IMG/VR virus record: IMGVR_UViG_3300010052_000131
Location: 3,500-67,499 of that record
Length of the DNA stretch: 64,000 nucleotides
DNA from: a virus
Lineage: Duplodnaviria > Caudoviricetes
Strand: one strand, 5' to 3'
In this document: positions 5,419 to 56,503 of the stretch, one piece after another
Layout: every line of letters starts with the position of its first letter
Position numbering within the stretch: position 1 is the stretch's first letter
The notes under the pieces: model-generated
Databases searched by the model: none
Told to the model about the DNA's origin: nothing
Seen by the model: only the letters and a program-made list of their open reading frames with translations
Position numbers and translations under genes: made by a program

Positions 5419-5422
5419 CGGT

Positions 5423-6076
5423 TCAACTCCATTTGACTTGCACGGTGATGCCGCCGTTATCGAGTTCGGCACCGGGGATCGGGGGGAAGGCGGCCTGCAG
5501 CTTCGCCAAGGCATCGTCGCGATCTTCGGGCAGCATCTGGCCCACCAAAAACCGCTCCTTCAGCTCGGCAATCTTTTGCTCCAGCGTGTCGCGCCGATCC
5601 TTCAAATCCCGCGTCAGGTCCGCCTTGCTCAATTCCGGATCGGACTGCTTGAAGTAGCGGGTTGGAACTGCGGCCTCGTCGGTAATGAGAAGCTTGGGCG
5701 GCACCGGGCGTAAGGTGACGCGCGCGATCGGGCGGTCGAAATTCTGCTGCTCAAGGATCTCCAGCGCATTGCGCAGCATGGTGCGCATGGTCTCGACGCG
5801 GTCGCTGATCCGCTTGCGGCGGGCGGCCATCGTGCTTTCGAACTTCTCCAGGCCTTGAACGGCGGCGACATCGAGCGCCATCTGTTCAAGAACCTTGTCG
5901 ACCGCGCCATCAAGGTCGGTTTCGCCCTCGATCATGTCGCGGAGCAGGGCGATATCCTGTTCCTCGCCGGCGAAGGCCTCCTTGAGCTGGTGCTTGAGGG
6001 CGCCGGCCGCCGCCAATTCCTTCTCCAGGTCGCGGCGGGCGTCCGGCACGGGTGCTTTCCTAGGAGCCGCCATCAT
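5423..6076 (-). CDS. Siphovirus Gp157-family protein
   Basis: DMIEGETDL...coiled coil...RPIARVTLRPVPPKLLITDEAAVP..YFKQ..PELSKADL...IPGAELDNGGITVQVK. Confidence 0.8.
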   Translation of the reverse strand: MMAAPRKAPVPDARRDLEKELAAAGALKHQLKEAFAGEEQDIALLRDMIEGETDLDGAVDKVLEQMALDVAAVQGLEKFESTMAARRKRISDRVETMRTMLRNALEILEQQNFDRPIARVTLRPVPPKLLITDEAAVPTRYFKQSDPELSKADLTRDLKDRRDTLEQKIAELKERFLVGQMLPEDRDDALAKLQAAFPPIPGAELDNGGITVQVKWS

Positions 6077-26744: not shown

Positions 26745-27350
26745 ATGATCCGCAGTCGCAAGCTGGTTTCCGCTGCCATTCTCGCTGGCCTCGCATTGTC
26801 GTTCCTGCCGCTGCAGGCGATCGCGCTGACCCCGAGCTTTGCCAACCCGCCGTTCCAGCGCCCGACCTTCAGCGCCGCGGCCGTCGGCATCGCCATTCCG
26901 CAGACCGGCGCCATGGACGCGGTATGCATCGCGGGTTCCGCCACCAAGACGGTGCGGATCAAGCGCATCACGATTTCCGGCATCGACGCCACCGCGCAGA
27001 CCGCCACCGTCAACCTGGTGCTGCGCTCCGCCGCCAGCACCGGCGGTACCTCGACGTCGCCGTCGGTGGTCCCGCTGGATTCGTCGAACGCGGCCGGTAC
27101 CGCGGTCGTCAAGGCTTACACCGTCGCATCGACCCCGGGCGCCGCGATCGGCACCGTGCGTTCGCAGTCGATCGGCTTTGCCGCGGCAACCGGATCGGCC
27201 GCCCAAGCCGTCACCTGGAACTTCGACCCGGAAACCATGTCGCAGGAAGTCATCCTGCGCGGCGTGGCCCAGCAGGCCTGCATCAACTTCCCGGCCGCAT
27301 TCACCACGGCCGGCCCCACCATCAACGTCGACGTGACCTGGACTGAGTAA
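26745..27350 (+). CDS. Exported beta-sandwich virion-type protein
   Basis: Signal MIRSRKLVSAAILAGLALSFLPLQAIA|L; 2 Cys; A/G/T/S rich. Confidence 0.75.
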   Translation: MIRSRKLVSAAILAGLALSFLPLQAIALTPSFANPPFQRPTFSAAAVGIAIPQTGAMDAVCIAGSATKTVRIKRITISGIDATAQTATVNLVLRSAASTGGTSTSPSVVPLDSSNAAGTAVVKAYTVASTPGAAIGTVRSQSIGFAAATGSAAQAVTWNFDPETMSQEVILRGVAQQACINFPAAFTTAGPTINVDVTWTE

Positions 27351-27386
27351 CGGCAGCGTCAACAGTTGACCGGGAAGGGAGCGGCC

Positions 27387-27794
27387 ATGAGAAAGATCGC
27401 CGGTTACATGGCTGTCGCCGCGATCGCGCTGTTCGCGTGGTCGCTCCCGGCTTCCGCCCAAAGCGGACCCGTCAAATTCCTGTCGACGGCCGGCACGAAT
27501 TCCAACCTGGTGCGCGGCGCGCCGACGCTGCTCAAGAGCGGCGTGATCAGCAACGGCACCGCGACCGCGTACTTTCTCAAGCTTTACAACAAGACGCTGG
27601 CGCCCGTCTGCGGGACGGACATTCCGCGATGGACGGTACCGCTTCCTGCCAACAGCAACACGCCGCTGTCCCTTGGCGATGGCCTGTTCTTCCCGTCCGG
27701 CCTCGGCATCTGCCTGACGGGCGCGATCGCCGACAACGATAACACGCCTGCCGCGGCCGGCGTCGCGATCAATCTTGGGGTTTCCGGCAAATGA
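27387..27794 (+). CDS. Exported small jelly-roll virion-type protein
   Basis: Signal MRKIAGYMAVAAIALFAWSLPASA|Q; YFLKLYNK..APVCGTDIP...GLFFPSGLGICLTGA; 2 Cys. Confidence 0.75.
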   Translation: MRKIAGYMAVAAIALFAWSLPASAQSGPVKFLSTAGTNSNLVRGAPTLLKSGVISNGTATAYFLKLYNKTLAPVCGTDIPRWTVPLPANSNTPLSLGDGLFFPSGLGICLTGAIADNDNTPAAAGVAINLGVSGK

Positions 27795-29527
27795 TCAGGA
27801 AGCTATCGCTCGCGCTCGCGGTTTCCGTAGCCCTTGTTGGCTCGGCATTCGCTCAGGCCTCGTTCACCGCCAAGGATGGCAACAACGTCATCCGGACCTT
27901 CAAATCGTTCTCGTGCTCCGGAATGATCTGTTCGCTGGCGGTGCCGGCGGATGCCAACGGCAACGCCTTCGGCGTCTCTGCCAATCCATTCTATATGGCG
28001 TTCGGCGCCGGCGTGACGCTTCCGGGCTTCGCCGCCGCGCCTTCCTTCAAGCTGCAGGACGGATCGGGCAACGCGATCGGCTCCACGTCCGGCTCCCTCA
28101 ACGTCAATATTACGGGCGGCGGTGGAGGCGGGGGCGGCAACGTCAACCTGACCCAGATCCTCGGAGCGGCGCCCAGCGCGACCAACCCGCTGTGGATCCA
28201 GCCCGGCACCGGCGCTTCGTTCGCCGTCACCGGCACATTCTGGCAGGCCACCCAGCCCGTCAGCATCGCTTCGATGCCATCGACCCCGGTGACGGGCACT
28301 TTCTGGCAGGCGACGCAGCCGGTCAGCGCCGTTTCGCTTCCGTTGCCCGCGCTCGCGGCGACGTCCACCAAGCAGAGCGACGGCACGCAAAAGACCCAGA
28401 TCGTTGATGGGGCCGGCAACGTCATCGCTTCGACGTCGAACAATCTGAACGTCCAGTGCGCAAACTGCTCTGGATCGGGCGTGAGTACCGCGGACGGCGC
28501 GAGCTTCGCAGCCGGGTCATCGCTTTTTGCCGGCGCCGGCGGCATCTTCCAGAACACGCCCACCAACAACCCTGTCGCCGATGGCAAGCAGGGCCTGTTC
28601 CAGATGACGGCCAACCGTGCGCAGCACGTCAACTTGCGCAGCGCGGCCGGCGTCGAGCTCGGCGTTGCCGCCGCTCCCGTGCAGGTCTCGCTGGCCAACA
28701 CGGCCGCAAACGGCACTGCCTTGCTGGTCACAGGGACGGGCGGCACGTTCCCGGTCACCGGGTCGTTCTGGCCCTATTCGTTGGGACAGCAACTCGCCGC
28801 TTCGTCCGTTCCTGTTATCCTGCCCGCGGCGACGATCGCCACACTGACGCCGCCGGCTGCGATCACCAACTTTTCGCTTGAGACCGGCGGCAACCTCGCT
28901 GGCATACTCACCACGCTCGGAGCCGTCTCTGCCTCACCAACGGCAAACACCGTGCAGGATCGCCTCAAGACGGTGGGCGCCAACACGGTCGCCTTGGGCG
29001 TTGGGACCGAAACAACGTGCCCAGCCTCAGGCGCCACGACGCTGATCGGCTGCATCCGGGCGGTCGCAACCCTTGCTGCCGCTCCGCTCCCCGGGCAGGT
29101 CAGCTTCGGCGTCAACATTGGCGCGGCGCAACTGCTGGACTCGAATTCCAAGACGGCGCTCCTCGACCCTTGCGAATATGGCGCGCACGTCTGGACCCGG
29201 ATTGACGTCGCGACCGCCGCATCTTCGGTTCTTGTCCCCGGAACGAGCTCGAAGAAAACCTACATTTGCTCGATCGGTCTCATGGCCGCCGGAACAACCA
29301 ATCTGGGAATTGTCGAAGGCTCCGGAACTACGTGCGGAACGTCGCCGCTGGGTTTGATCGGCGGCAATACCGCGGCGAAGGGCTTGAACCTCACAGCGCA
29401 GGCGGGCGTCGCATTCGGCAACGGCGCAAAGGCAATTGCCGCGTCAACCGTCAACGCCAACGATATCTGCCTGATCAACGGATCGGCAATTCAGGTGTCG
29501 GGCTACATCGTGACGGCAACGCCTTGA
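27791..29527 (+). CDS. Exported fibre-like protein with VTGTFWQATQPVS repeats
   Basis: Signal MIRKLSLALAVSVALVGSAFA|Q; Gly8 linker; 10 Cys. Confidence 0.8.
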   Translation: MIRKLSLALAVSVALVGSAFAQASFTAKDGNNVIRTFKSFSCSGMICSLAVPADANGNAFGVSANPFYMAFGAGVTLPGFAAAPSFKLQDGSGNAIGSTSGSLNVNITGGGGGGGGNVNLTQILGAAPSATNPLWIQPGTGASFAVTGTFWQATQPVSIASMPSTPVTGTFWQATQPVSAVSLPLPALAATSTKQSDGTQKTQIVDGAGNVIASTSNNLNVQCANCSGSGVSTADGASFAAGSSLFAGAGGIFQNTPTNNPVADGKQGLFQMTANRAQHVNLRSAAGVELGVAAAPVQVSLANTAANGTALLVTGTGGTFPVTGSFWPYSLGQQLAASSVPVILPAATIATLTPPAAITNFSLETGGNLAGILTTLGAVSASPTANTVQDRLKTVGANTVALGVGTETTCPASGATTLIGCIRAVATLAAAPLPGQVSFGVNIGAAQLLDSNSKTALLDPCEYGAHVWTRIDVATAASSVLVPGTSSKKTYICSIGLMAAGTTNLGIVEGSGTTCGTSPLGLIGGNTAAKGLNLTAQAGVAFGNGAKAIAASTVNANDICLINGSAIQVSGYIVTATP

Positions 29528-29535
29528 TATCCAGA

Positions 29536-30465
29536 ATGAACGTTCGCTCTCACATCACGGCGCTCTACGCGGCGCTGTTCGCTGTCCTGTTGGCGGTTTC
29601 GCCAGCCGGATCAGGATCGATGACGCTCTTGGGGGTAGGGAAGCCCTCTGGCGCCGCTGGCGGATGCTCGCAAGCCACAGCGTTCCTCGCTCGAACGACG
29701 GGTTTGAGTGGAACCGAAACATCTGCCTACACGACGTTGATTTGCGGCTTGGTGACCGACGGCGTCATCACCGGGACAATGGCGGGTTCTGGAGTTGGCG
29801 CGAGTGCGTGCGGTTCAATTCTTGATCTCCTTTACATCACAACGACGAAAAATACCTCGACCGCATCGCTCAATCTTTGCAGTACTTCTTTCACGGCGAC
29901 ACCGTTTGGGTCGTTGACCTTTTCAGCCGACAATTATTGGTCGCCTGATGACGCTCTTTCAGGGCTTGATACCGGGTTCAATCCGAATACCGCAGGCGGT
30001 GCCTTTTCGCTCAATAGCGCCTCTATGGGGGGCTGCGTTCTCAATAATCGGACGTCAAACGCGAACACGTATGCGATTGGCGTTCAAGACACATCGACCG
30101 TGTCGCTGTTGCAACTTCTCAATGGAGGGCAAGCTCTTTTCGATCTGAACGAAGCGGCTTTTTCGCAAGCTGCCAACACGTCGAGCATCGGCAGCTGGAC
30201 GTTGACGCGCGGTAACAGCACGAGCTTAATTCTGTATAACAACGCGACGTCCTTCGCCTCCGTCAGTGCCGCCTCATCGTCTGTTCCCAATTTTTCGATC
30301 TATCTGATGGCCAACAATAACAAAGGATCGGTCTCCGGAGGAAGCACGAACGACCAGTTTGCTGCTTTTTGGGTGGGTGGGAATTTGACAAGTGGATTGG
30401 TAACGAGCTTGCGGACACGGATCGCAGCATTCGTGCTTGCGGTTAAAGGATCGTCCGGATGCTGA
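29536..30465 (+). CDS. Exported lectin-like (ConA/LamG-type) protein
   Basis: Signal MNVRSHITALYAALFAVLLAVSPAGS; LDTGFNP...LILYNN..S...SIYLMANN...FAAFWVGGNL; 6 Cys. Confidence 0.65.
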   Translation: MNVRSHITALYAALFAVLLAVSPAGSGSMTLLGVGKPSGAAGGCSQATAFLARTTGLSGTETSAYTTLICGLVTDGVITGTMAGSGVGASACGSILDLLYITTTKNTSTASLNLCSTSFTATPFGSLTFSADNYWSPDDALSGLDTGFNPNTAGGAFSLNSASMGGCVLNNRTSNANTYAIGVQDTSTVSLLQLLNGGQALFDLNEAAFSQAANTSSIGSWTLTRGNSTSLILYNNATSFASVSAASSSVPNFSIYLMANNNKGSVSGGSTNDQFAAFWVGGNLTSGLVTSLRTRIAAFVLAVKGSSGC

Positions 30466-33083
30466 CCATCAATCGACGGTCATTTGTTCATGCAGGATGC
30501 ATGGCAGCTATAGCGAGCGCTGTGCCTTCGATGGGCGAGGCAAGGGTTCCTCGAGGTAACCCAATCTCGTTCAACGATCCTCTTCTGTCCAAACGCAGCG
30601 TCATCAACGTTGGTTCTGCAAGTCAGTTCCACTACGCATTTATCAATCACTTTCTCTCCGGTGATGCGTGCGTAGGGCCCTACAACACGGCCTTTACGAC
30701 CACAACGAACACCTGGCCGCAATATATCGATGCCGACGGCTGGCCGAATGTGCCGGTGGGTGGCGAGTGGTTCGCCGGATCTATCCGATTGCCGGCGTCC
30801 GCCGATTTCGGCGGAAATTACACGATTACATGGACGGGGGACGGGGAGGTCCTGCTCAATAGCGGGACATGGACTGTCAACGCAGGCCTGAGCAGCAACT
30901 ACACAGAGGTTTCGAACGGTCGATACACCAACACGCCGGGTTTGGTGCCAAAGATCGTTGTTTCAGTTACCGGCTTCTCGCATCCTACGCTTTTGAGCGT
31001 CATCTTTCTCTCGACCGATCCGAATTCGGCTGGGCGTTTTCTGAAGAATTTCAAATTCTACCGGACGGCAGACGAGGCCAGGCTTCAGTCTGGCAAGGTT
31101 TTCCGAACCGCATTCCTGCAGTCCCTCGTCAACCTCAATCCCTCGGCGATCCGCTGCATGGATATGCACGGCGGCAACGATGCGAGGAACTGTCGGTTCG
31201 AAAATCGCACGCTACCGAGCGCTGCGGGATATTCCGGCCGCTCAAATTGGGTTGCTTCGCCAGCCTACGGAAAAGCGTCGTTTGTCGACGGCGTCAACGC
31301 CAACCAGTACACCTTGGCTGCCGTTACCAGCGGGGCCAGGCAGACCGCGGCGTCAATGGTTCACGGCGAGATCGTCACCTGCCTGATTAATACCGCTGCT
31401 GTCAGGAACGGTACGTTCACGGGCGGCGGCGTCTTCCGCACCGTGACTTCGATCTCCAAGGCATCGAATGGGCGCGTCGTTTGCGCGAGTCACGGGTTCG
31501 AGACGGGTGACACGATTGTTCACCTGATCCCAACCGGAATGACGCAGCTGCACAAGTTCCCGTGCGTTATCACCAAGATCGACGCCAACACCTATGACCT
31601 GAATGTCAATACGAGCGGTTTTTCCACGTTCACGGCGGGGACGGCCAACCAATTCATCACGCTCCAGGTCGGTAGCGGGAACGATCGCACGAAGTATCCC
31701 GTCATCTTCTCCGATGGCACCACTTATGCTTCTACCTACGGCGATGGGTATTTGAAGCTTCGCCAGTATCAAACCTTCTATTTCGACAAGACGCTTTCTG
31801 CGCAAAACGATAGTTCCGGCAATCCGATTTACGGCGTTTGGATTTTCCTCGACAATTCTGGCGGTGCTCACCCCGGCGACGTGCCTGCCGAAATTTGCGT
31901 CGCGCTCGTCAACGAGGTGAACGAGCTTGCTCTGTCTCAGGGCAAAACAAATACGACCCATCTTTGGTTGAACATTCCCCATTGGGGGCTGTCATCCATG
32001 GACCCGGACTATAGCGCTGCGTCGAATTTCGCCGTTAAAACCATGGATGTCGTTCTGAACGGCGCGAACGGATATCCCGGCTTGGCTTTGCCGGCGAGCG
32101 TTTTGCTGGAGGACGACAACGAGACCTGGAACACAGCGGGCGCCGCGTTTACTCAGGCTCTTTATCTGGCTGCGCGAGGCGTCCTACGCTGGCCTTCAAC
32201 CAGCAGCTTGTCTGACTTCGCCAGCATGGCGGCGCTACGGTCTACCGTGATGGTCCGGGATGTGAAGGCGGCAACAGGTAACACTACGCGGATACGCTAT
32301 GTGCTCGCCGGACAGGGCTTTCTTGGTTATAATTCTGGCACGCTCAACGGGCTTCGTTGCCTGGGTACCGCGTCATACCTGACCGATGCACTCGTCACCG
32401 GAGGCAATTTCGGCACTCCGATTTCCAATCACGATGCTTTCGCGCACGGGACTTATTTCGACGCGGGGGATGACACTCATTATTATGGCCCCGGCAAGGG
32501 AATAGGCACTTTCACCGATGACAGCGCCATGTATCAGGGCCTCAACAACACCGTGAACGGTGGCGGCAATTATTCCGGTGCGGCCAATCAATCTCAGGCG
32601 ATTGCGAACTTTGTAGCCGCCGTCGTCGGGGGCGGCGGGCAATCTTGCAACTACTATTGCAGTGTCGCGTCTCCCGCGGCGGGCAAGGACGCGGAGTTTG
32701 CCGCCGCGATGGTGGCGTTAGGTAAGAAATCTATCACCTATGAAGGCGGGCCGGATTGGATTTCACGCCAAGGTGCAAATGAGTATGCTGGCTATGGTCC
32801 CCTCAGCGCGGGTGATGCGGCCTTCAAGCGGGCTGTGCAGAACAGTGCGGCATGGGGAACCGCGCAGACGAACTATTTCAATGCGAAGTGTACGCTGGCC
32901 GGCATCGCCATGCCGGGAGTATACTTCATCGTCAGCGATTTTGATGGACTAGGAACGACGCTCGACCAGCGTTGGGCCTACGCTTCGCCGGACACGTATG
33001 CAGGCGGCACTGAAGGCCAAGCATTACTGAACAATGGAGCATGGGTGGCGATGGGCGCGAGAAATCAAGCGCTCACGCCTTGA
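30459..33083 (+). CDS. Tat-exported clan GH-A glycoside hydrolase-like protein with FCCH-like insert
   Basis: NRRSFV twin-arginine; AIRCMD, GDVPAEICVALVNEV..LWLNIPH, DDNETWN, ITYEGG. Confidence 0.65.
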   Translation: MLTINRRSFVHAGCMAAIASAVPSMGEARVPRGNPISFNDPLLSKRSVINVGSASQFHYAFINHFLSGDACVGPYNTAFTTTTNTWPQYIDADGWPNVPVGGEWFAGSIRLPASADFGGNYTITWTGDGEVLLNSGTWTVNAGLSSNYTEVSNGRYTNTPGLVPKIVVSVTGFSHPTLLSVIFLSTDPNSAGRFLKNFKFYRTADEARLQSGKVFRTAFLQSLVNLNPSAIRCMDMHGGNDARNCRFENRTLPSAAGYSGRSNWVASPAYGKASFVDGVNANQYTLAAVTSGARQTAASMVHGEIVTCLINTAAVRNGTFTGGGVFRTVTSISKASNGRVVCASHGFETGDTIVHLIPTGMTQLHKFPCVITKIDANTYDLNVNTSGFSTFTAGTANQFITLQVGSGNDRTKYPVIFSDGTTYASTYGDGYLKLRQYQTFYFDKTLSAQNDSSGNPIYGVWIFLDNSGGAHPGDVPAEICVALVNEVNELALSQGKTNTTHLWLNIPHWGLSSMDPDYSAASNFAVKTMDVVLNGANGYPGLALPASVLLEDDNETWNTAGAAFTQALYLAARGVLRWPSTSSLSDFASMAALRSTVMVRDVKAATGNTTRIRYVLAGQGFLGYNSGTLNGLRCLGTASYLTDALVTGGNFGTPISNHDAFAHGTYFDAGDDTHYYGPGKGIGTFTDDSAMYQGLNNTVNGGGNYSGAANQSQAIANFVAAVVGGGGQSCNYYCSVASPAAGKDAEFAAAMVALGKKSITYEGGPDWISRQGANEYAGYGPLSAGDAAFKRAVQNSAAWGTAQTNYFNAKCTLAGIAMPGVYFIVSDFDGLGTTLDQRWAYASPDTYAGGTEGQALLNNGAWVAMGARNQALTP

Positions 33084-33583
33084 GCAATGCTGCGTTGCTG
33101 CCGTTGCCGATAGATACCAAGCATCGCAAAGCCGATTAATAGCATAAGCCAGGTAGATGCTTCTGGAATTCCGCTGGCAAGGGACCCTCTAAGGTCGACA
33201 TCTACAGTCGATCCCGGCGAAAAAAGATCGGCCGACATAGGATCAATAAAGACGAAGACGTGAATTTCTCCGGTACCGGTAAATGCCAGTCGAGAATGCC
33301 CGGCCGCGCCCAATATCCAATCAATGCGAATGTCGTCGACGGTCGGGTTTGCAAAATCAATGATAGTGCCGTCGGGCAAATTCGATCCGAACACGCCGAT
33401 AGATGGTGGGGAATCAAGGCCGGAGGGGATATCGAAAATCACTTCCTGGGCGCCTGCTGGTCCCACCTGATTGAATGTCAGGGTGGCTACGGAATTTAGC
33501 GTCAGAAGGGTAGCGGCGCCCGCTGGCAATATTGTTTGGATTAAAAGCCCAATGCAGAAAGAGTAGGCTGCAAATCTCATCAT
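33065..33583 (-). CDS. PEP-CTERM (PEPxxWA type) surface protein, moron
   Basis: Signal peptide; C-terminal IPEASTWLMLLIGFAMLGIYRQRQQR. Confidence 0.82.
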   Translation of the reverse strand: MMRFAAYSFCIGLLIQTILPAGAATLLTLNSVATLTFNQVGPAGAQEVIFDIPSGLDSPPSIGVFGSNLPDGTIIDFANPTVDDIRIDWILGAAGHSRLAFTGTGEIHVFVFIDPMSADLFSPGSTVDVDLRGSLASGIPEASTWLMLLIGFAMLGIYRQRQQRSIAQGVSA

Positions 33584-33678
33584 CAGAAACACCCCTGAAC
33601 TATAAGGGGTATTTCAACGTTCCCGCCCCGGTTGAGTCAATTGGCCTAAATCAAATAATCCGCCTAGACTTTAGTTGA

Positions 33679-48568: not shown

Positions 48569-49330
48569 ATGCCGATCATCGACACATGGGACTCGGGTCT
48601 CCCCGGGGCCGCATGGGATAGCGGCCTGCAGTGGGACGTCAATGTCGGACCGAACCCCGGCGACATCTCTGCGTATCTGGCGCTGGTCACGAGCGGGCAC
48701 AATGACAAGCCGAAATTCATGGCCACGATGGCCCTCTTGCTCCAGCCGATCGCGGACATTTTCGCGCTCGTCAAGAGCATGCCGGCGCTGTTCGACTTGG
48801 ACAACGCGGTCGGCGATCAACTCGACAAGGTGGGAGAGTGGGTCGGCGTCACCCGGAATATCTCGGTGCCGCTACCCGGCGTCTATTTTTCGCTCGACCA
48901 GGCCGGCCTTGGCCTCAATGAGGGGTCGCTGAAGGGCGAGTTCGATCCGGTCGCCGGCTTGTTAGTCCTGCCCGATCAGAACTACCGGACCTTCCTGCGC
49001 GCGCGCATCGCCAGCAATCAATGGGACGGCACGATCCCCGGGGCTTACGCCGCTTGGGACGTCCTGTTCGCCGGAACGGGCTATGGCATCCTCATTCAGG
49101 ACGCCGGCAACATGTCGATGATCCTCGCATTGACCGGTCCGGTTCCAGACGCCGTGACCAATGCGCTTTTCGTCGGCGGATATCTCAGCCTCAAGCCATC
49201 GACTGTTCGCATCTCCAACTACATCGCGCCGGCTATCGCAGACACGCCCTATTTCGGCATCGGCGTTTCAAACGCCGTCATTGCAGGGCTCGACAGCGGC
49301 ACCTTCGGCAACACCACGGCAGGAACGTAA
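48569..49330 (+). CDS. Baseplate wedge protein (DUF2612) with WDSG N-terminal extension
   Basis: KPKF...FDLDNAVGDQLDKVGEWVGVTR...YRTFLRARI..NQWDGT. Confidence 0.88.
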   Translation: MPIIDTWDSGLPGAAWDSGLQWDVNVGPNPGDISAYLALVTSGHNDKPKFMATMALLLQPIADIFALVKSMPALFDLDNAVGDQLDKVGEWVGVTRNISVPLPGVYFSLDQAGLGLNEGSLKGEFDPVAGLLVLPDQNYRTFLRARIASNQWDGTIPGAYAAWDVLFAGTGYGILIQDAGNMSMILALTGPVPDAVTNALFVGGYLSLKPSTVRISNYIAPAIADTPYFGIGVSNAVIAGLDSGTFGNTTAGT

Positions 49331-49333
49331 CGC

Positions 49334-49906
49334 ATGCCCACCGTCGATTATCTCCCGATCGCCAACGCGGTCGGCGCCGCCGTCGAAAGCCAGGCGGATT
49401 ACGCGGCAGACCCTTCGCTGCCGAATGGTTATCAGACCGGCATCGTTCCGCAGCTCAAGTTCAACAAATCATGGCGTCAATCGTCGATGATGGCCGCGGC
49501 GATCGCAAATTACATCGCGCAGCAATTGACCGTCGATGTGCTGGACGACGGCGATGTGGCCGGGCTCGTCGTCAAACTGACAAATGCGATCACGACCGGC
49601 GCCGCGCTCAAGCCATCCCGGATCGTCGCGGCCAGCGCTGTCCTCAACATTGGGACAGCCGATTATGCGATCGGCCTGAACCGGGTCGCTGGCTTGGCGG
49701 CGATGGTCGCTAATCTTCCGGGCGCGGCGCAGGTAAATCAGGAGTTCGTCCTCGAAGACCTTGCCGGCAATTTCAACGCCTTCCCGGTGACCGTGACGCC
49801 ACCGGTTGGTCACAGCATCGCCGGCGAGGCGACGTGGCTGATGAACGTTGATCGCGGCTCAAACAAGTTCCGTTACTACGGTTCGAATATCTGGAGTGTT
49901 GCGTGA
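49334..49906 (+). CDS. Short tail-fibre base/adaptor (no signal peptide, no Cys)
   Basis: DYLPIA..VESQADY...GYQTG...FNKSWRQSSMMAAAIANYI...DVLDDGD baseplate-anchor motif. Confidence 0.82.
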   Translation: MPTVDYLPIANAVGAAVESQADYAADPSLPNGYQTGIVPQLKFNKSWRQSSMMAAAIANYIAQQLTVDVLDDGDVAGLVVKLTNAITTGAALKPSRIVAASAVLNIGTADYAIGLNRVAGLAAMVANLPGAAQVNQEFVLEDLAGNFNAFPVTVTPPVGHSIAGEATWLMNVDRGSNKFRYYGSNIWSVA

Positions 49907-50847
49907 TGCTGAAGAGGATTGTTGCGCCGCTTCTTGCGGTGACGATTGCGGCCGTCGGAGTATTCTTTGCCGTCCCGTCGCCACACCGCGCGGAAGCCCA
50001 ATTCCGCGAGCAAAGCACCTATGGCGGGACGTCGACCGGAAGCGCAAACGCGCAAGTCATCGCCATTCCGAATCTCGCGACGCGCCCGATCGGCGTGCCG
50101 TTTCGCTTCATTCCGGGTTTCACCAATACCGGCCCCACAACGATCAACGATGGCCTTGGCGCGGTGGCGCTGGTACGGCCATCGTCGATCGGCAACGTGG
50201 CGTTTTCCGGCGGCGAATTACTGGCTGGCGAGCTGACGTCGATCATCTATACCGGGAGCGTCTATCAGCTCGCCAGCAACGTCGACCTGACGCGGATTGG
50301 CCAGTCCGTCGAACTCCGGGGCACAAGCGCAACGGCGCCGCGCGGTACGCTGATCGAGGACGGTAGCTGCGTTTCGCAAACGACATATGCCGCGCTCTTT
50401 AGCGTGATCGGTACGGCCTATGGAAGTTGTTCAGCCGGGCTGTTTGCGCTTCCGGACAGCCGCGGGACCATGTTCGCGGCGCTGGATAATCAGGGCTCAA
50501 ACGGTGCGGCTAACCGAATTACGAGCGGCGGCAGCGGATGCAACGGCACCACCATCGGGCTTTGCGGATCGCAGCTGCACACACTTCTGACCACTGAAGT
50601 TCCGAACCTGAATGTCACCGGCCTGGCATCCAACTTCCGGATCAGCGGGGGCTCCTCGATCAACCTTCTTCTTCCGGATCAGGGCGCGGCGGTGAGAACC
50701 CTGGCGTTCACCGGCGGCACCGTATTTGGCTTGGGAAGTGGCGGCAATCTGGCTGGCGACGTCGCCGGCGCTACCACCAACGGGGGCGGCGGGGCTCACT
50801 CGATCCTCAATCCGGTTCTGCTCGGCCGTCGCGCGATCAAATACTGA
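49906..50847 (+). CDS. Tail-collar-domain fibre with signal peptide
   Basis: Signal MLKRIVAPLLAVTIAAVGVFFAVPSPHRAEA|Q; FTNTGPTTIN; DGSCVSQTTYAALFSVIGTAYG...LPDSRG collar motif. Confidence 0.85.
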   Translation: MLKRIVAPLLAVTIAAVGVFFAVPSPHRAEAQFREQSTYGGTSTGSANAQVIAIPNLATRPIGVPFRFIPGFTNTGPTTINDGLGAVALVRPSSIGNVAFSGGELLAGELTSIIYTGSVYQLASNVDLTRIGQSVELRGTSATAPRGTLIEDGSCVSQTTYAALFSVIGTAYGSCSAGLFALPDSRGTMFAALDNQGSNGAANRITSGGSGCNGTTIGLCGSQLHTLLTTEVPNLNVTGLASNFRISGGSSINLLLPDQGAAVRTLAFTGGTVFGLGSGGNLAGDVAGATTNGGGGAHSILNPVLLGRRAIKY

Positions 50848-50857
50848 GAGCAATCCA

Positions 50858-53026
50858 ATGAAATTGAAGTCGGGTTTTCTAGCCGCCCTGTGGCTGCTTA
50901 CGGCGGAGTCATGCGCGCTCGCCGGCAGCACGGTTGATCCGTCGCAACCATCGACGCGCGGGGCTTTCACGTCCGCCCCCGTTCGGAACAACTTCCTGGC
51001 GGCCTACAACGATATCAATAACATCCTCGGCGTATTCGCAGCGCCGGCGGCGCCGAACTCTCCGACGCATCTTCAATCATGGGCCGATACGACGGCGTCG
51101 CCCGTCGTCGTCTTCAAATACTGGAACCAAGTTCATGCGGTTTGGATCCCGTATGCGATCCTAAACACCAGCTCCAATTCTTATACCCCGTTCTTCACGC
51201 CGGGCGGATATGTCGCAAATGCACCGATCACGATCTCGGTTTCGGGTGGCGTTGCGACCTTCGGCCTCGCGAAGGACAGCAATTTTGCGACTGTCAGCGG
51301 CGCGCTTGCGTTCGCGCCGATCGCAGACGGCAGCCTGCTGGCCCGGTGCGCCGGTTCGGCCGGCGAACCCAGCGCCTGCACGTGGGCCGCCTTCGCTGCG
51401 CGAGCGATCGGCAATACCAACGGGATATTCCCGCACTATGTCGGCGGCACCTGGACCACGGACACCACCGGCACCAGCGGGCACGCGGTACCGTTCCTTG
51501 ACGGCAGCAACATTTGGGGAGCGCCGCAGACCATTTACTTGGGTTCCTCCTCGTTGCGCGCGGCGATCTCCGGGACGGTCCTGCGCGGGGCCCAGGCGGA
51601 TGGGACGCCCGCGGTTTCCCAGCTCGATAGCTTCGGCGCGGCCACCGCATATACCTGCGTGCGATCGAACGGGACGGCCGCCGTCAGTACCGCGCTCACG
51701 ACCAACGATCTGATTTGCGCCCTTGGTGGCCATGGGTTCGACGGCACGGCAAATTCGTCAGTCGCGGCCGCTTTCCGTCTCTACGCATCGCAGCCCTGGA
51801 CCGGCAGCGCACACGGCACCTTTGCGCGCATCGCGGTCACGGCCAACGGATCCACATCACCGGTGGATCAGTTCGGTATTGAGCAGGACGGCGGTCTGAC
51901 GCTTCCGCCGACGGTCACCGGCGGAAGCAAGGGCGCTGGCACGATCAATATCTCCGGCAATTATTATGTCGGCGGCAATCAGATTAACTTCAGCAATCTG
52001 GCGGGGCAGGCGGCGCTTTCGCAGCTTCCGACAATCGGCGCCAACACGGTGTTGGGCAGTGTGGCCGGCGGAACACCAATCGCGCTCACGCAGGCCCAGC
52101 AAACAGCCATGATTAATCTGGCGACCGCGTCGCTTTCGGGCGCGCTGCCGCCCTGGCCGGGCAATACCACGACCTATTTCCGGGGTGACGGCACCTATCC
52201 GACGCTGAACTTTGCCGCGATCAGCGGCGTCGCGACCGGTGCGCAATTGCCGGTGCCGGGTGCGTCATCGCTCGGCGGGGTCAACAGCAAGGATTGTTCG
52301 CCGAGCGGTCAGTTCGTCCAGAAGATTAATACCGACGGTTCGATCACTTGCGTGACGCCGGCGGGCGGCGGCAACCTCTCGACCTCAGGCACCCCGTCAG
52401 CGAACCAAACCGGCGTTTTCGGAAGCTCGACGACGCTGCAGGGGGTCGGTCCTGGCATAGCTGGACAGCAGTTCACCTCGAATGGCCCGAGCTCGCCGCC
52501 GTCTTTTCAATCCGGTGGTTGGGTGCTGCTCAACACGCTGACAGCCAGCAATTCGGCTAGCTTGTCGGACACGACGAGCCTGACTGCGAACTATAACGAA
52601 TATCAAATCGTTTTTGATAAGTTGGTTCCGGCGACGAACGCTGTCCAGTGCCAGATGACGGTGAGGTCGGGTGGCACTTTCCAAACGACCAATTATTCTG
52701 CACCGGGTGTCGGATTCGCATCGACAAGTGTCGTCGGAAATACCGCAACGACTTTCATCCCCTGTTCGAACGCAAACTCTGCCGACATAGGCAATAGTGC
52801 TTCGGGAGGACTCTCTGGTGCATTTAGAGTCCAGACACCTTCCGGAACTTCCACATACAAAGGGTGGAATGGTCAGTTCTCATTCTTAAACCAAAGCGGA
52901 GGGTTCACTGGAGCGATTAATACTGGAGCATGGATTGGGGGAACTGGGGCCGTCGATGGTTTCCTAATAAAAATGAACAGCGGCAACATCAGCAGCGGGA
53001 CCGTGAAGATCTACGGACGATTGTGA
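50858..53026 (+). CDS. Long tail fibre / receptor-binding protein with signal peptide
   Basis: Signal MKLKSGFLAALWLLTAESCALA|G; VRNNFLAAYNDINNI trimerisation-like helix; C-terminal GWVLLNTLTASNSASL...YNEYQIVF...ISSGTVKIYG. Confidence 0.82.
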   Translation: MKLKSGFLAALWLLTAESCALAGSTVDPSQPSTRGAFTSAPVRNNFLAAYNDINNILGVFAAPAAPNSPTHLQSWADTTASPVVVFKYWNQVHAVWIPYAILNTSSNSYTPFFTPGGYVANAPITISVSGGVATFGLAKDSNFATVSGALAFAPIADGSLLARCAGSAGEPSACTWAAFAARAIGNTNGIFPHYVGGTWTTDTTGTSGHAVPFLDGSNIWGAPQTIYLGSSSLRAAISGTVLRGAQADGTPAVSQLDSFGAATAYTCVRSNGTAAVSTALTTNDLICALGGHGFDGTANSSVAAAFRLYASQPWTGSAHGTFARIAVTANGSTSPVDQFGIEQDGGLTLPPTVTGGSKGAGTINISGNYYVGGNQINFSNLAGQAALSQLPTIGANTVLGSVAGGTPIALTQAQQTAMINLATASLSGALPPWPGNTTTYFRGDGTYPTLNFAAISGVATGAQLPVPGASSLGGVNSKDCSPSGQFVQKINTDGSITCVTPAGGGNLSTSGTPSANQTGVFGSSTTLQGVGPGIAGQQFTSNGPSSPPSFQSGGWVLLNTLTASNSASLSDTTSLTANYNEYQIVFDKLVPATNAVQCQMTVRSGGTFQTTNYSAPGVGFASTSVVGNTATTFIPCSNANSADIGNSASGGLSGAFRVQTPSGTSTYKGWNGQFSFLNQSGGFTGAINTGAWIGGTGAVDGFLIKMNSGNISSGTVKIYGRL

Positions 53027-53059: not shown

Positions 53060-53084
53060 GCCGCCTTAGGGCGGCTTTTTCTTT
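53060..53084 (+). terminator. Intrinsic terminator
   Basis: gccgcc-ttag-ggcggc-ttttt. Confidence 0.7.
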
Positions 53085-53094
53085 GGAGCCACCA

Positions 53095-53952
53095 ATGCCG
53101 ACCAACGCCGCGATGATCGCAGCGAACGCCGACCGCTGGGCGAAAGCCCATATTTATCCTGAGTGGCAGAAGGCGATTGATGAGACCGCCGACCGCCTGA
53201 CGCTGCCACAGAACAAGGCGCGGTTTCTGGCTGTTGAAAAAGCCGAAGGAGTTCCGTGGTTCGCGATCGCGATCATCAAGGAGCGCGAGGCCGGCGCCGA
53301 TCCGGCCTTCAAGAAGTCGATCGCCCAGGGCGACGCGTGGGCAGCTCGCTCGACCCACATTCCAAAGGGCAGGGGACCATTCTCGAGCTGGGAAGCGGCG
53401 GCGCATGACGCCCTGGTCGACTGCGCGCCCTATGCCGCGCGCTGGCACGATTGGTCGATCGGCGGCCTTCTGACCATCCTCGAAAAATACAACGGCCTCG
53501 GTTACGCCGCGAAAGGCTTGCCATCGCCCTACATTTGGTCGGCGACCGATCAGTACGTGAAGGGCAAATACATTCGGGACGGCGTCTTTGACGCAAACTT
53601 CGTCGATCGACAGATCGGCTGCGCGGCGCTCTTGATCGCCTTGCAGCGGCGCGACCCGTCCATCAAGTTTAGCACCCCGGGCACGCCGGCGCGCCCTTCG
53701 GTAGCCCCGCCGCAGATCCTTGTCGACGCCGCCACCAAGACCGCTCGGAACACGCGGTCCGGCGCGCTGGTCGGCGCCGCGGCCGCGGGCGGCAGCGAGG
53801 CGGCGAAAACCGGTACCCAAGTTCCGGCGCCGGCCCCCGCCGCAGTCCCGTCATATGTCGGCCCGGCCGTGCTGGTGGTCGCGATCGTGGTAGCGATGGC
53901 CGCCACCATTATCGTGGCCAAGCGCAAGGCCGCCGTTCTCAACGTCTGGTAA
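53095..53952 (+). CDS. Endolysin (lysozyme-like family) with C-terminal membrane segment
   Basis: GVPWFAIAIIKERE...IPKGRGPF.SWE.AA.DAL...LEKYNGLGY...PSPYIWSATDQY.KGKY..DG.FD...DRQIGCAALL. Confidence 0.8.
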   Translation: MPTNAAMIAANADRWAKAHIYPEWQKAIDETADRLTLPQNKARFLAVEKAEGVPWFAIAIIKEREAGADPAFKKSIAQGDAWAARSTHIPKGRGPFSSWEAAAHDALVDCAPYAARWHDWSIGGLLTILEKYNGLGYAAKGLPSPYIWSATDQYVKGKYIRDGVFDANFVDRQIGCAALLIALQRRDPSIKFSTPGTPARPSVAPPQILVDAATKTARNTRSGALVGAAAAGGSEAAKTGTQVPAPAPAAVPSYVGPAVLVVAIVVAMAATIIVAKRKAAVLNVW

Positions 53953-53956
53953 CGCC

Positions 53957-54427
53957 ATGCTCAAGGCCGTGACGTATTGGGCGGAAATGGTCTGTTCGCC
54001 GGTGCTGGCGGCCTGCCTGGTCGCGAGTTCGACGCTGCGGCCGGACGTCATGCCCGGGCTATTGCTGGGCGGCGCGGTGGCATGGACGCTGGCCGAATAC
54101 GGCGTTCACCGCTTCATGCTGCACGATCTGATGCCGACGCAGCACCGGCTGCATCACGCGCGGCCAGGGGACGCGATTTCAAGCATCTTCTGGCCGATTT
54201 GGGCCGCCTTCGCCGTGGTCTATCTGATCGCGGGCGGCGTCGTGCTCGCCGGCGTGCTGCTGGCCTATAGCTGGTACCTGTTCGTCCATCATTGCGCGCA
54301 TCACCGCCGCGGCGCGCTGCCGGCAGCGCTTCTCAATCACCACGACGGCCACCACCGCTACGCGACGCGCAATTTCGGCGTCAGCACCACGCTGTGGGAT
54401 CACGCCTTCGGAACCGTTCTTCGCTGA
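53957..54427 (+). CDS. Fatty acid hydroxylase / sterol desaturase family protein
   Basis: His boxes EYGVHRFMLH, HRLHH, YLFVHHCAHH, HHDGHH, RNFGVSTTLWDHAFGT. Confidence 0.9.
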   Translation: MLKAVTYWAEMVCSPVLAACLVASSTLRPDVMPGLLLGGAVAWTLAEYGVHRFMLHDLMPTQHRLHHARPGDAISSIFWPIWAAFAVVYLIAGGVVLAGVLLAYSWYLFVHHCAHHRRGALPAALLNHHDGHHRYATRNFGVSTTLWDHAFGTVLR

Positions 54428-54450
54428 TCAATTCAAAAAGGAGCATCACC

Positions 54451-54723
54451 ATGTGGACCAAAGTTAAGGCGTTCTTTCACGATCTCGCCGTCAAGATCAA
54501 AACCAACATCATGAACGCGATTGCGCTGATCGGCACGCTGTTCGGGTCGGCGCTATCTCATATCGACGCGCTGGCGGCGACGCTGGGCGATCCGAACCTG
54601 ACCCAGCAGATTTCTACCGTCGTCACCGATGCCAAATGGATCGGGCGGTGGATACTGACCGTCGGCATCATCGCCACGATCGCGAAGTTCAAGCAGTTGG
54701 TGCAAGCGCCACCGAAGGGCTGA
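54451..54723 (+). CDS. Holin-like membrane protein
   Basis: Two hydrophobic segments, basic termini, in lysis cassette. Confidence 0.6.
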   Translation: MWTKVKAFFHDLAVKIKTNIMNAIALIGTLFGSALSHIDALAATLGDPNLTQQISTVVTDAKWIGRWILTVGIIATIAKFKQLVQAPPKG

Positions 54724-54727
54724 TCCC

Positions 54728-55111
54728 ATGTGGAATATCATCATCGGCTTTCTGGGCGGCCCCGTCATCAAGGGGCTGCTGGATGCGTACAACGCGCATC
54801 TGAAGGCGACGACGGATGACAAGGCGATCGCCGCCGATCTTGCGGGCAAGGAAATCGCCGCGCAGGTCTCCGAAACCAACGCGATCATGGCGTACCGGAC
54901 GGCGGAGATCGGGCACTGGTATGAGCCTGACAAACTGATGGGCTATTTCGTCGCCGCCTACTTCGGAAAGCTGCTGATCTGGGACAAGGTTTTGGGGCTC
55001 GGCACCACCGATCCCTTGGCCGGCTTTGCCGCGGTCACCGCCAACCTGGTCGTCAGCTTCTATTTCGCGAAGCGCGGGTTCGAGAACATCGCCCGGATCA
55101 TCAAGCGCTGA
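54728..55111 (+). CDS. Holin-like membrane protein
   Basis: GGPVIKGLLDAY...YFGKLLIWDKVLGLGTTDPL...VVSFYFAKR. Confidence 0.65.
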   Translation: MWNIIIGFLGGPVIKGLLDAYNAHLKATTDDKAIAADLAGKEIAAQVSETNAIMAYRTAEIGHWYEPDKLMGYFVAAYFGKLLIWDKVLGLGTTDPLAGFAAVTANLVVSFYFAKRGFENIARIIKR

Positions 55112-55114
55112 ACC

Positions 55115-55516
55115 ATGCCCGTCACGCTCGCCAGCCTCAGCAAGAAAGTCCGGCTGATCGTCGGAATCATCACCGCACTGGTCGCGGGCGCCGGCGCGCT
55201 CGCGGCCTATTCGGACTATGCGCCGGCGACGCGGGGATATGCCAAGGACGTGGCCAAGCGGGAGACCGACGCCGCCCTGATCGTCACCACGGCGCGCATC
55301 GGCAACCTGCAGCGGGAGGCCATGGAAACCCGCCTGCAGATCAACCAGGTACGGCGGGACACGCTCCGGAACGACAAGTTCAACCGGGAACAGCAGCTAA
55401 AGGACGCGCCCGACCTGCAAACGCGGCAGTTGCTGCGCCAGCGGCTGGATGAGATCGACGACGCGCTGCGCGACGTCTACGCGGAACGGGAACGCCTCCG
55501 AATTCCATCACCTTAG
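55115..55516 (+). CDS. Membrane-anchored coiled-coil protein (i-spanin-like position)
   Basis: N-terminal TM followed by long coiled coil. Confidence 0.55.
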   Translation: MPVTLASLSKKVRLIVGIITALVAGAGALAAYSDYAPATRGYAKDVAKRETDAALIVTTARIGNLQREAMETRLQINQVRRDTLRNDKFNREQQLKDAPDLQTRQLLRQRLDEIDDALRDVYAERERLRIPSP

Positions 55517-55533
55517 AATTTACAGAACATCAC

Positions 55534-55574
55534 GCTCCGGCGGGCTCGAGGAATCGGGCCCGCCGGAGCTTTTT
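55534..55574. terminator. Strong terminator ending late operon
   Basis: gctccggcgggc...gcccgccggagc (12 bp) then ttttt; convergent with ligase gene. Confidence 0.8.
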
Positions 55575-55585
55575 GCGTTTCGGGG

Positions 55586-56503
55586 TCACAGATCTTCCCG
55601 CAAGCCTTTGAAGAACGGGTGTCGCACCTTGCCTTCGGCCGACTTCGCCCGATATTCGATTTCAGCCATCAGTTTGGGTTCAACCCAGATCCCCTTATGG
55701 GCGATGCGTTTTGCATAGGGCTGCGTTGGGCGGATCAGGGGCGTCAGACGCCGGCGCAGTTCCGCTGTGGACGCTTTGTCGAAGCCGTGGTCGACCTTGC
55801 CGGCATAAACCAGGTCGCCGCCCTTGCGCCGGCCGAGATAGATGCCGTCCCAATCCTTGCCGTCGAGTGCAAAGCCGGCGATCGTCAGCGTCTCGCGCTG
55901 GGCGCTCGTTTTCTTGACCCAGTTGTTACCCCGGCCGGAAGCGTAGATGCTATCGCGGACCTTGGAGACGATGCCCTCCAGCCCGACCTTGGCGGCGTGC
56001 TTGAATATCTCGCGACCGTCGCCCTCGAAGCTCTCGCTGAATTGGATATTCGTGCCGGCGATCAGCTTTTTGAGATGCGCTTTGCGCTCGACCAGCGGCA
56101 GTTTCCGAAGATCGTAACCGTTGAGATAAAGCAGGTCGAACGCCACCATCACGATGCGGGTAGACTTGCCCTTCAATTCATTCTGCAGGACTGAAAAATC
56201 CGTGGTGCCATCGGCCGCGGGGACCACCACCTCGCCATCGATGATCGCGGAGCCCGCGCTGATGTGCCAGGCGTCGTCAGCGATCTTGCGGAAACGTTTC
56301 GTCCAGTCATTGCCGCGGCGCGTGTAGACCTTGATCGCCTCGTTGGCGAGATGGGTCTGGACGCGGTAGCCGTCGAACTTGATCTCGTGGATCCAGCGTT
56401 CGCCGTTGGGCACGCTGTCGATCGCGGTGGCCAGCGCCGGCTCGATGAATCCGGGGAAGGGCGCCTTGGTGCCGATCGCCGCCGGTTTCTTGCGCGGGGC
56501 CAT
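55586..56503 (-). CDS. ATP-dependent DNA ligase (LigD ligase domain only)
   Basis: EIKFDGYRVQ, IIDGEVVV, AFDLLYLNG, EGIVSK, WVKK, HPFFKGLRED. Confidence 0.93.
   Translation of the reverse strand: MAPRKKPAAIGTKAPFPGFIEPALATAIDSVPNGERWIHEIKFDGYRVQTHLANEAIKVYTRRGNDWTKRFRKIADDAWHISAGSAIIDGEVVVPAADGTTDFSVLQNELKGKSTRIVMVAFDLLYLNGYDLRKLPLVERKAHLKKLIAGTNIQFSESFEGDGREIFKHAAKVGLEGIVSKVRDSIYASGRGNNWVKKTSAQRETLTIAGFALDGKDWDGIYLGRRKGGDLVYAGKVDHGFDKASTAELRRRLTPLIRPTQPYAKRIAHKGIWVEPKLMAEIEYRAKSAEGKVRHPFFKGLREDL

Follow-up and report, generated by a model that had tools for sequence, protein, structure and literature searches.

How can tail fibres whose genes begin with signals for export become part of a phage particle? 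In the textbook account the assembly of tailed phages is wholly cytoplasmic, and their fibres need cytoplasmic chaperones. The question is raised by positions 49,334 to 53,026 of a 64,000 nucleotide stretch of viral DNA (the window, to which all coordinates refer), taken from the IMG/VR provirus IMGVR_UViG_3300010052_000131. Three consecutive genes on the plus strand encode a 190 amino acid (aa) adaptor or 'stub', a 313 aa collar fibre, and a 722 aa long fibre. An earlier note on this DNA proposed that the two fibres are exported, oxidised in the periplasm, and loaded onto a baseplate-anchoring stub only when the inner membrane is breached. The present analysis favours a split, branched receptor-binding apparatus with exported distal parts that are loaded after lysis, in a contractile-tailed temperate lineage that would complete its virions outside the cytoplasm by means of Sec-exported, disulfide-bonded fibres. 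The probability of this full chain of events is put at about 0.5. The arrangement is a strong candidate for extracytoplasmic virion maturation, and all of the computational tests that were able to contradict the export reading favoured it.

The N-termini of both fibres have the features of Sec-type signal peptides, with a basic n-region, a hydrophobic h-region, and small residues at -3 and -1. In the collar fibre (49906-50847, plus strand; 313 aa from an ATG, a GTG one codon upstream giving a reading of 314 aa), residues 1-31 (49906-49998) consist of MLKR, 19 uncharged hydrophobic residues, and PSPHRAEA, with cleavage predicted between AEA and QF; the h-region is longer than usual. Residues 1-22 of the long fibre (50858-53026, plus strand; signal 50858-50923) are MKLK, 12 hydrophobic residues, and ESCALA, with cleavage predicted between ALA and GST. 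These are the sites, HRAEA before Q and SCALA before G, that the earlier note had read from the translations. Signals were called on their n/h/c anatomy and on conservation, a crude rule that misplaces cleavage sites and gives a few false positives being used as a screen only.

The homologs of the two fibres that were compared are metagenomic (n=178); the nearest homolog to bear a name is from Bradyrhizobium erythrophlei. More than 230 relatives of the collar fibre, each of about 300 aa, were found, and 119 of the best 120 of these have a signal-like N-terminus, as do 53 of the 58 long fibre homologs. The earlier note had suggested such a count as a check, and the outcome agrees with it. In the collar family the sequence of the signal is free to vary while the n/h/c architecture is kept; A31, Q32, and F33 are at least 90% invariant and the cleavage site is preceded by the conserved motif (V/I)PPPxxAxA, with QF following. 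The long fibre signals are of the short, classical type ending in AxA, with A22 and S24 invariant, and a conserved domain (GSTVNP...PVRNNF...DINNILG) comes right after them. As judged from these alignments, signal-bearing fibres are a family trait, not chance. A start of translation past the hydrophobic stretch, which the earlier note had named as an observation that would count against it, is unsupported, since in 12 loci the hydrophobic segment is not followed by any conserved in-frame start that has a ribosome-binding site, and one of these loci is free of starts for 70 codons. The export of the two fibres is considered very probable. The collar signal is unusually hydrophobic and may therefore be targeted by the signal recognition particle.

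A proline run, VPPP in most collar family signals and VPSP here (49969-49998), stands just ahead of the A-x-A, a feature seldom seen in signal peptides. Its role might be to make translation pause or to set the geometry of cleavage.

The cysteines behave as would be expected of proteins folded under oxidising conditions. The collar fibre has four, conserved and in short-range pairs (155/175 and 212/220), and the mature long fibre has eight, also in short-range pairs, including KDC...ITC and the conserved pairs 164/174 and 267/287; both counts are as the earlier note had them. In the mature collar family, 113 of 116 members have 4, 6, or 8 Cys (1.64% of residues), and where there are more than four the extra Cys come in pairs (40/43). 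Even counts are found in 48 of the 58 mature long fibres, with Cys making up 1.28% of residues. The control set, 135 signal-less fibres sharing the anchor of the stub, has 0.64% Cys, with even counts in 41 of the 97 that contain any. Binomial p-values for even counts are 3e-30 for the collar family and 2e-7 for the long fibres, although these overstate independence because the sequences are related. This Cys parity fits oxidative folding and is indirect evidence for translocation and cleavage.

The stub (49334-49906, plus strand) is, as the earlier note described it, a 190 aa protein with no Cys and no signal. It is without a hydrophobic N-terminus, the best 19-residue Kyte-Doolittle mean being 1.47 and internal. 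That it anchors to the baseplate is supported by residues 1-92 (49334-49609), a signal-less, helical baseplate-anchor domain matching phrog_11303 tail fiber (E 2e-24), which an exhaustive profile search places at the head of fibres of 190-722 aa from many phages. It is not a mere stub, since a second, C-terminal domain makes it a two-domain adaptor. The AlphaFold2 model has a predicted local distance difference test (pLDDT) value of 93, with helices at residues 40-65 and 75-91 at pLDDT of approximately 90. Residues 93-190 (49610-49906 with the stop codon) form a beta-sandwich knob of XD1 fold. Aligned with VIA-align, the knob matches residues 79-175 of CBA120 TSP4, which are XD1 (Z 13.8, root mean square deviation 1.8 A over 94 residues), T4 gp9 (Z 11.4), and T4 gp10 (Z 11.7). 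TSP4, gp9, and gp10 are baseplate proteins that bear other fibres (PMC8825819). The modelled structure, the gene adjacency, and the complex prediction described below make it likely that the stub is an adaptor in which the XD1-like knob is the socket.

An N-terminal baseplate anchor followed by an XD1-fold domain is the order found in gp10-like adaptors. The XD2 and XD3 jellyrolls are absent from the stub, which stops at residue 190, straight after the XD1-like domain; it works like a gp10-like adaptor yet is outside the TSP4/gp10 architecture. In the proteins that have it, the knob is always the last domain in the exhaustive profile search. Two knob proteins, P0215 and P0307, bear a signal of their own, so the knob is compatible with the periplasm. 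Among GenBank phages the stub has matches to the anchor only, with no knob.

The collar fibre is linked to this knob by several lines of evidence. In six relatives (P0286, P0315, P0314, P0281, P0264, and P0299) the anchor, corresponding to stub residues 1-87, is followed by a few linker residues and then by a segment like collar residues 36-149. The fused segment is 37-47% identical to the collar fibre, and the homology begins five residues past the predicted cleavage site. Both knob and signal are missing from the fusions. Therefore, the layout in this provirus corresponds to the same fibre cut behind its anchor, with the knob on one side of the cut and the signal on the other.

Gene order points the same way. 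Loci were sampled via the collar protein, via the knob, and via the anchor (79 loci), with the knob detected by knob-only BLAST. In all 14 loci with downstream DNA, the knob gene is followed by a signal-bearing gene of the collar family, mostly with an ATGA overlap: four of four loci found via the collar, eight of eight found independently via the knob, and two of two distinct knob loci among the 79 found via the anchor. Locus L175 repeats the order of DUF2612, stub, signal-bearing collar fibre, and a signal-bearing fibre of 923 aa. In L002 and L003 there is a second pair, a signal-less adaptor of approximately 190 aa and then a signal-bearing fibre of 977 or 1115 aa. The L003 homolog was considered as a lipoprotein on account of its LIGC sequence; this was ruled out, as an A-S-A site before FEAQ follows as in its relatives.

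Among approximately 41 knob-less loci, the crude rule flags a few downstream genes and inspection by eye finds four real-looking signals. In these four (L185, L202, L214, and L218) a short anchor with a small C-terminal domain, which by sequence is no XD1-type knob, precedes a signal-bearing fibre-like gene. The gene in L218 has the N-domain of the 722 aa type. Split-and-export may therefore occur with several types of socket.

The third line is structural. The earlier note had proposed a multimer prediction of stub with fibre, and three copies of the knob were modelled with three copies of collar residues 32-140. The interface score (ipSAE) reaches 0.90, whereas the best of three controls scores 0.00, in runs whose own alignments and 3+3 stoichiometry differ from the calibration of the tool; in that calibration the 0.90 mark is attained by 58 of 80 solved complexes and by 2 of 110 mismatched pairs. 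The runs share at least 91% of contacts and the pLDDT of the partners is at least 83. In the predicted interface, knob residues 145-176 and 189-190 lie against collar residues 32-37 and 55-62, so the model uses the end of the collar fibre that cleavage would create. The pairing of knob and collar is considered probable, slightly less so than export.

Within the mature collar fibre, the N-terminus and N-domain (residues 32-140, 49999-50325), which have homology to the fused fibres and pLDDT of 84-95, are the proposed docking end. Beyond these (50329-50847) come the Tail Collar domain (50329-50469), a Gly-rich variable region, and conserved C-terminal strands. The Pfam Collar domain (PF07484) scores 46.1 bits, against a cut-off of 24, at residues 143-189 of the 314 aa reading, and 50.2 bits in a six-frame search. 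The AlphaFold2 model has a confident, beta-rich part at residues 39-190, for which Foldseek matches the tail fibre of cyanophage A-1(L) (8kec), the Pa193 fibre (9b45), and T4 gp10 and gp12. Searches of GenBank phages with the collar protein gave Collar domain matches only, as did a scan of genome contigs, which found no full-length members of the family.

The mature long fibre (50924-53026) has, on the family alignment, a conserved N-terminal domain and shaft, to residue 430 or so, and a variable tip at approximately 504-722. Across the family the first 430 or so residues are kept and the C-terminal tips are swapped, some being of pectate-lyase, beta-helix, or S74 type; the S74 domain (PF13884) is present in P0171 and P0177. 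By sequence, a conserved N-terminal part with mosaic tips is the pattern of receptor-binding proteins. The tip here matches phrog_14820 (residues 547-720). In the ESM Atlas the shaft is like lambda Stf and the last 220 residues resemble virus-only proteins of 210-250 aa. At least 13 of the long fibre homologs are on contigs equal in size to that of a collar family member. Among GenBank phages there is a single weak match, to the tip. Sequence searches of Pfam, NCBIfam, and the PDB were without a match for the 722 aa protein, for the stub, and for the 285 aa protein of the lysis region described below.

No fibre chaperone gene follows the long fibre, as the earlier note had observed; the next features are a terminator hairpin and a lysis cassette. 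Caudo_TAP (PF02413) has no match anywhere in the 67.5 kb provirus, nor does DUF4376 (PF14301), although for the latter the positive control was also undetected. Chaperone genes of one or the other kind are found 3' of signal-less, knob-less fibres with the same anchor in 9 of the 10 tested.

These observations suggest the following sequence of events. The 190 aa protein would become part of the tail while still in the cytoplasm, held to the baseplate by its N-domain and offering its XD1-like knob as a socket. The collar and long fibres, made from the late operon with Sec signals, would be translocated, cut by signal peptidase I (at AEA-QF and ALA-GST), and would then assemble into trimers and acquire their disulfides in the periplasm, no Tfa-type chaperone being involved. 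Cleavage would yield the docking N-terminus of the collar fibre (QF...), which would bind the distal face of the knob trimer. Because tails cannot cross the inner membrane, docking would take place only when the action of holin and endolysin mixes cytoplasm and periplasm, and the virion would therefore become adsorption-competent outside the cytoplasm. In ordinary fibres a peptide bond and a Tfa chaperone do what would here be done jointly by export signal and socket.

The provirus in which these genes are found is 100% complete according to CheckV, 67,499 bases in length, and nearly all of it is spanned by the window. Its gene content is that of a temperate phage with a contractile tail, with the structural genes ordered along the plus strand. 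Head genes encode a terminase, a portal (PF06381), a Mu-F-like protein, a DUF2213 protease/scaffold, and a major capsid protein (PF09950). These are followed by genes for the sheath, the tube, and a tape measure bearing a lysozyme domain, and by those for the baseplate, including an E217 gp41-like hub, a Gp138_N spike, Baseplate_J, and DUF2612. A tailocin is ruled out by the portal, capsid, and terminase genes and by the completeness of the provirus. The DUF2612 protein (48569-49330, plus strand; PF11041, E 4e-46), which also precedes the stub in L175, is encoded by the last baseplate gene, and the adaptor, collar, and long fibre genes are directly 3' of it.

The start of the collar gene overlaps the stop codon of the stub by one base (TGATG). 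A terminator-like hairpin is present at 53060-53075 (plus strand; a GC-only 6 bp stem and then a T-run, 34 nucleotides past the long fibre stop). From the baseplate genes up to this hairpin, a scan limited to the sigma-70 consensus found no promoter-like site. On this sequence evidence the fibre genes are translationally coupled members of the late tail operon.

Beyond the hairpin is a probable lysis cassette (53095-55516, plus strand), the functions of which are assigned by inference. It comprises genes for an endolysin-like protein anchored to the membrane at its C-terminus, a member of the fatty-acid-hydroxylase family, two small membrane proteins, and a protein resembling spanins. Hydrophobic segments and a coiled region are visible in the translations. 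A second, strong terminator at 55534-55569 ends the cassette. The endolysin-like protein (285 aa; 53095-53952, plus strand) has its hydrophobic segment at the C-terminus (approximately 255-280), in place of an N-terminal signal or signal-anchor-release (SAR) domain, and in the ESM Atlas gives a weak, feature-based lead to GH19/muramidase clusters (0.81). The fatty-acid-hydroxylase-family membrane protein (53957-54427, plus strand; PF04116, E 3e-13) is encoded between the endolysin-like and the holin/spanin-like genes, an odd position for a lipid-modifying enzyme. Just beyond the cassette is a gene for an ATP-dependent, LigD-like DNA ligase (55586-56503, minus strand). In L004 the related prophage is likewise followed by a fragment of a similar ligase (14588-14884, minus strand); the gene could belong to a shared neighbourhood of integration or be carried by the phage.

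Exported proteins are also encoded elsewhere in these prophages. Five co-oriented genes between those for the Mu-F-like and protease/scaffold proteins (26745-33083, plus strand) all have export signals by their N-terminal anatomy, four Sec-like (201, 135, 578, and approximately 300 aa) and the fifth, of 874 aa, twin-arginine-like (NRRSFV). None belongs to a Pfam family and PHROG matches are almost absent; the 30-34 kb region has a lower GC content (0.55). From their sequences they might be exported head decorations or cargo. A 175 aa protein within the head module (33065-33592, minus strand) has a signal and a PEP-CTERM motif (PF07589, 23.5 bits) and resembles a surface protein of the host type, taken along as cargo. 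In L004 a signal-bearing open reading frame of approximately 356 aa (MKRLCSIILSIALLASAPARA..., at about 4466-5536, plus strand) lies between genes for baseplate W-like and J-like proteins; exported proteins are therefore also inserted within baseplate modules.

Several points weigh against extracytoplasmic loading of the fibres. Among cultured phages in GenBank none has the knob or full-length signal-bearing fibres. XD1 in TSP4 is viewed as a spacer and not as a docking domain (PMC8825819). The calibration of the complex prediction tool is without 3+3 assemblies, and likeness to solved complexes of gp10 or TSP4 type may add to the score. With its 19-residue core and conserved PPP motif, the collar signal is not typical of Sec signals that are cleaved, and it is possibly an uncleaved anchor. 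Loading after the envelope is breached must outpace rapid dilution, and no retention mechanism is evident. With a further five or six exported proteins encoded among its head genes, the prophage may simply bear much exported cargo.

The strongest of the other explanations, although it is unlikely, is that both proteins are exported and are not part of the virion, the stub alone serving as a short fibre. They would be free, fibre-derived binders in the periplasm or after release, with possible roles in masking or modifying receptors on the dying cell and its debris, in superinfection exclusion, or in adhesion. Exported proteins encoded beside tail genes are known (lambda lom, T5 llp, and cor), and depolymerase-type domains are present in some members of the families. 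The same prophage has other exported proteins of unassigned role, and the exported, fibre-like trimers of Bdellovibrio are outside virions (PMC10769870). However, this explanation does not account for the fusion of the collar N-domain to the baseplate anchor in relatives, for the constant adjacency and translational coupling of knob and signal-bearing gene, or for the predicted docking of the post-cleavage N-terminus on the knob. The genes also have no promoter of their own, so they would be expressed late only, and a phage without both proteins would be left with a 98-residue knob for host recognition.

Somewhat less likely still is that the hydrophobic N-termini are unused or only partly used for export, and that folding of the fibres and their attachment to the tail are cytoplasmic, as in other phages. 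The N-terminal helix would be kept for trimerisation, docking, or membrane association, or the proteins would be split between compartments. The atypical collar signal is in keeping with this, as is the classical cytoplasmic assembly of tails, and disulfides could arise after release into oxidising surroundings. Yet the full n/h/c anatomy with a near-invariant -3/-1 site and a freely varying helix is the opposite of what a specific docking helix would show, and the signals of the long fibres are of the textbook cleavable kind. Signal-less relatives, which are equally extracellular in the end, show neither the parity nor the enrichment of Cys, and the chaperone gene has been lost exactly at the signal-bearing loci. 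In addition, the predicted interface, which begins at residue 32, has no room for 31 more residues per chain.

It is improbable that the genes are lysogenic-conversion morons, encoding surface or periplasmic proteins of the lysogen and placed at the fibre position by chance. The ends of tail operons often hold morons, and the fatty-acid-hydroxylase-family and PEP-CTERM genes of this prophage look moron-like. The fibre genes do not: they have virion-fibre folds, no promoter-like site or terminator separates them from the baseplate genes, the stop codon of the stub is overlapped, and the sole terminator comes after the 722 aa gene. Their GC content (0.61-0.63) matches that of their neighbours, and the order is kept in the 14 related loci. 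A role in lysogenic conversion is also at odds with expression that is late and coupled, with no internal promoter. An annotation artefact, with true starts downstream and the hydrophobic stretches untranslated or in another frame, is the most remote of the explanations, for although high-GC DNA is rich in long spurious open frames, the stretch is kept as protein in nearly all homologs of both families despite their divergence, the 12 loci have no conserved later start, and the conserved mature domain starts five residues past the cleavage site.

If export followed by loading at lysis is correct, a second compartment is added to virion morphogenesis and infectivity becomes dependent upon the host Sec, LepB, and Dsb systems. 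The fibres would be stabilised by disulfides, and the receptor-binding proteins would be kept from the tails until release. The annotation rule that a protein with a signal peptide is not a virion protein would need to change, and the socket and plug would offer a natural module with which to exchange receptor-binding proteins in vitro.

Full-text searching of the literature turned up no account of tailed phages with Sec-exported fibres; fibres acquired only outside the cytoplasm are, to that extent, undescribed for this group. The earlier note could not match the arrangement to a described system, yet it does resemble CBA120 TSP1-4, T4 gp9 and gp10, and the mosaic adhesive trimers (MAT) of Bdellovibrio. 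Virion proteins with Sec signals are themselves known from the Ff phages, in which pIII and pVIII have such signals, pIII is disulfide-bonded in the periplasm, and assembly is extracytoplasmic. Unlike the phage described here, Ff (Inoviridae) is extruded without lysis and has no tail and no cytoplasmic particle, and there is no homology. SAR endolysins, lambda Lom, T5 Llp, and Cor are phage-encoded, Sec-dependent, and placed in the envelope, and some are encoded beside fibre genes. These differ in being lysis or exclusion proteins that have no fibre folds and are unlinked to a baseplate adaptor.

The MAT of Bdellovibrio bacteriovorus are phage-fibre-like trimers with a signal peptide, a conserved domain after the signal, and mosaic tips (PMC10769870). 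Compared by description, they are like the 722 aa family in having a signal and mosaic tips, with S74 chaperone-protease domains in some. They are genes of a cellular predator that displays the fibres on its own surface, whereas those described here are in the tail operon of a complete prophage with a dedicated adaptor. The layout of lambda Stf/Tfa, P2 H/G, and Mu S/U, a long signal-less fibre followed by Caudo_TAP, is seen in relatives with the same anchor. Compared with this type, the fibre here is cut behind the anchor, with the knob and the signal inserted at the cut and the chaperone gene absent.

The closest likeness in architecture is to the branched complexes of CBA120 TSP1-4, G7C gp66/gp63.1, and T4 gp9/gp10 with gp11/gp12 and the long fibres. 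In these a trimeric adaptor on the baseplate receives separate fibres or spikes that dock by their N-termini, as is likewise proposed here, and the apparatus would work in the manner of those of Ackermannviridae and T4. TSP4, gp9, and gp10 share the XD1 fold with the knob of the stub, and the collar fold is like that of T4 gp10 and gp12. The known gp10-like complexes are cytoplasmic and signal-less, and docking in them is via the XD2 and XD3 jellyrolls that the stub lacks. In the present provirus the proposed socket is instead the terminal XD1-like domain, and its partners bear Sec signals.

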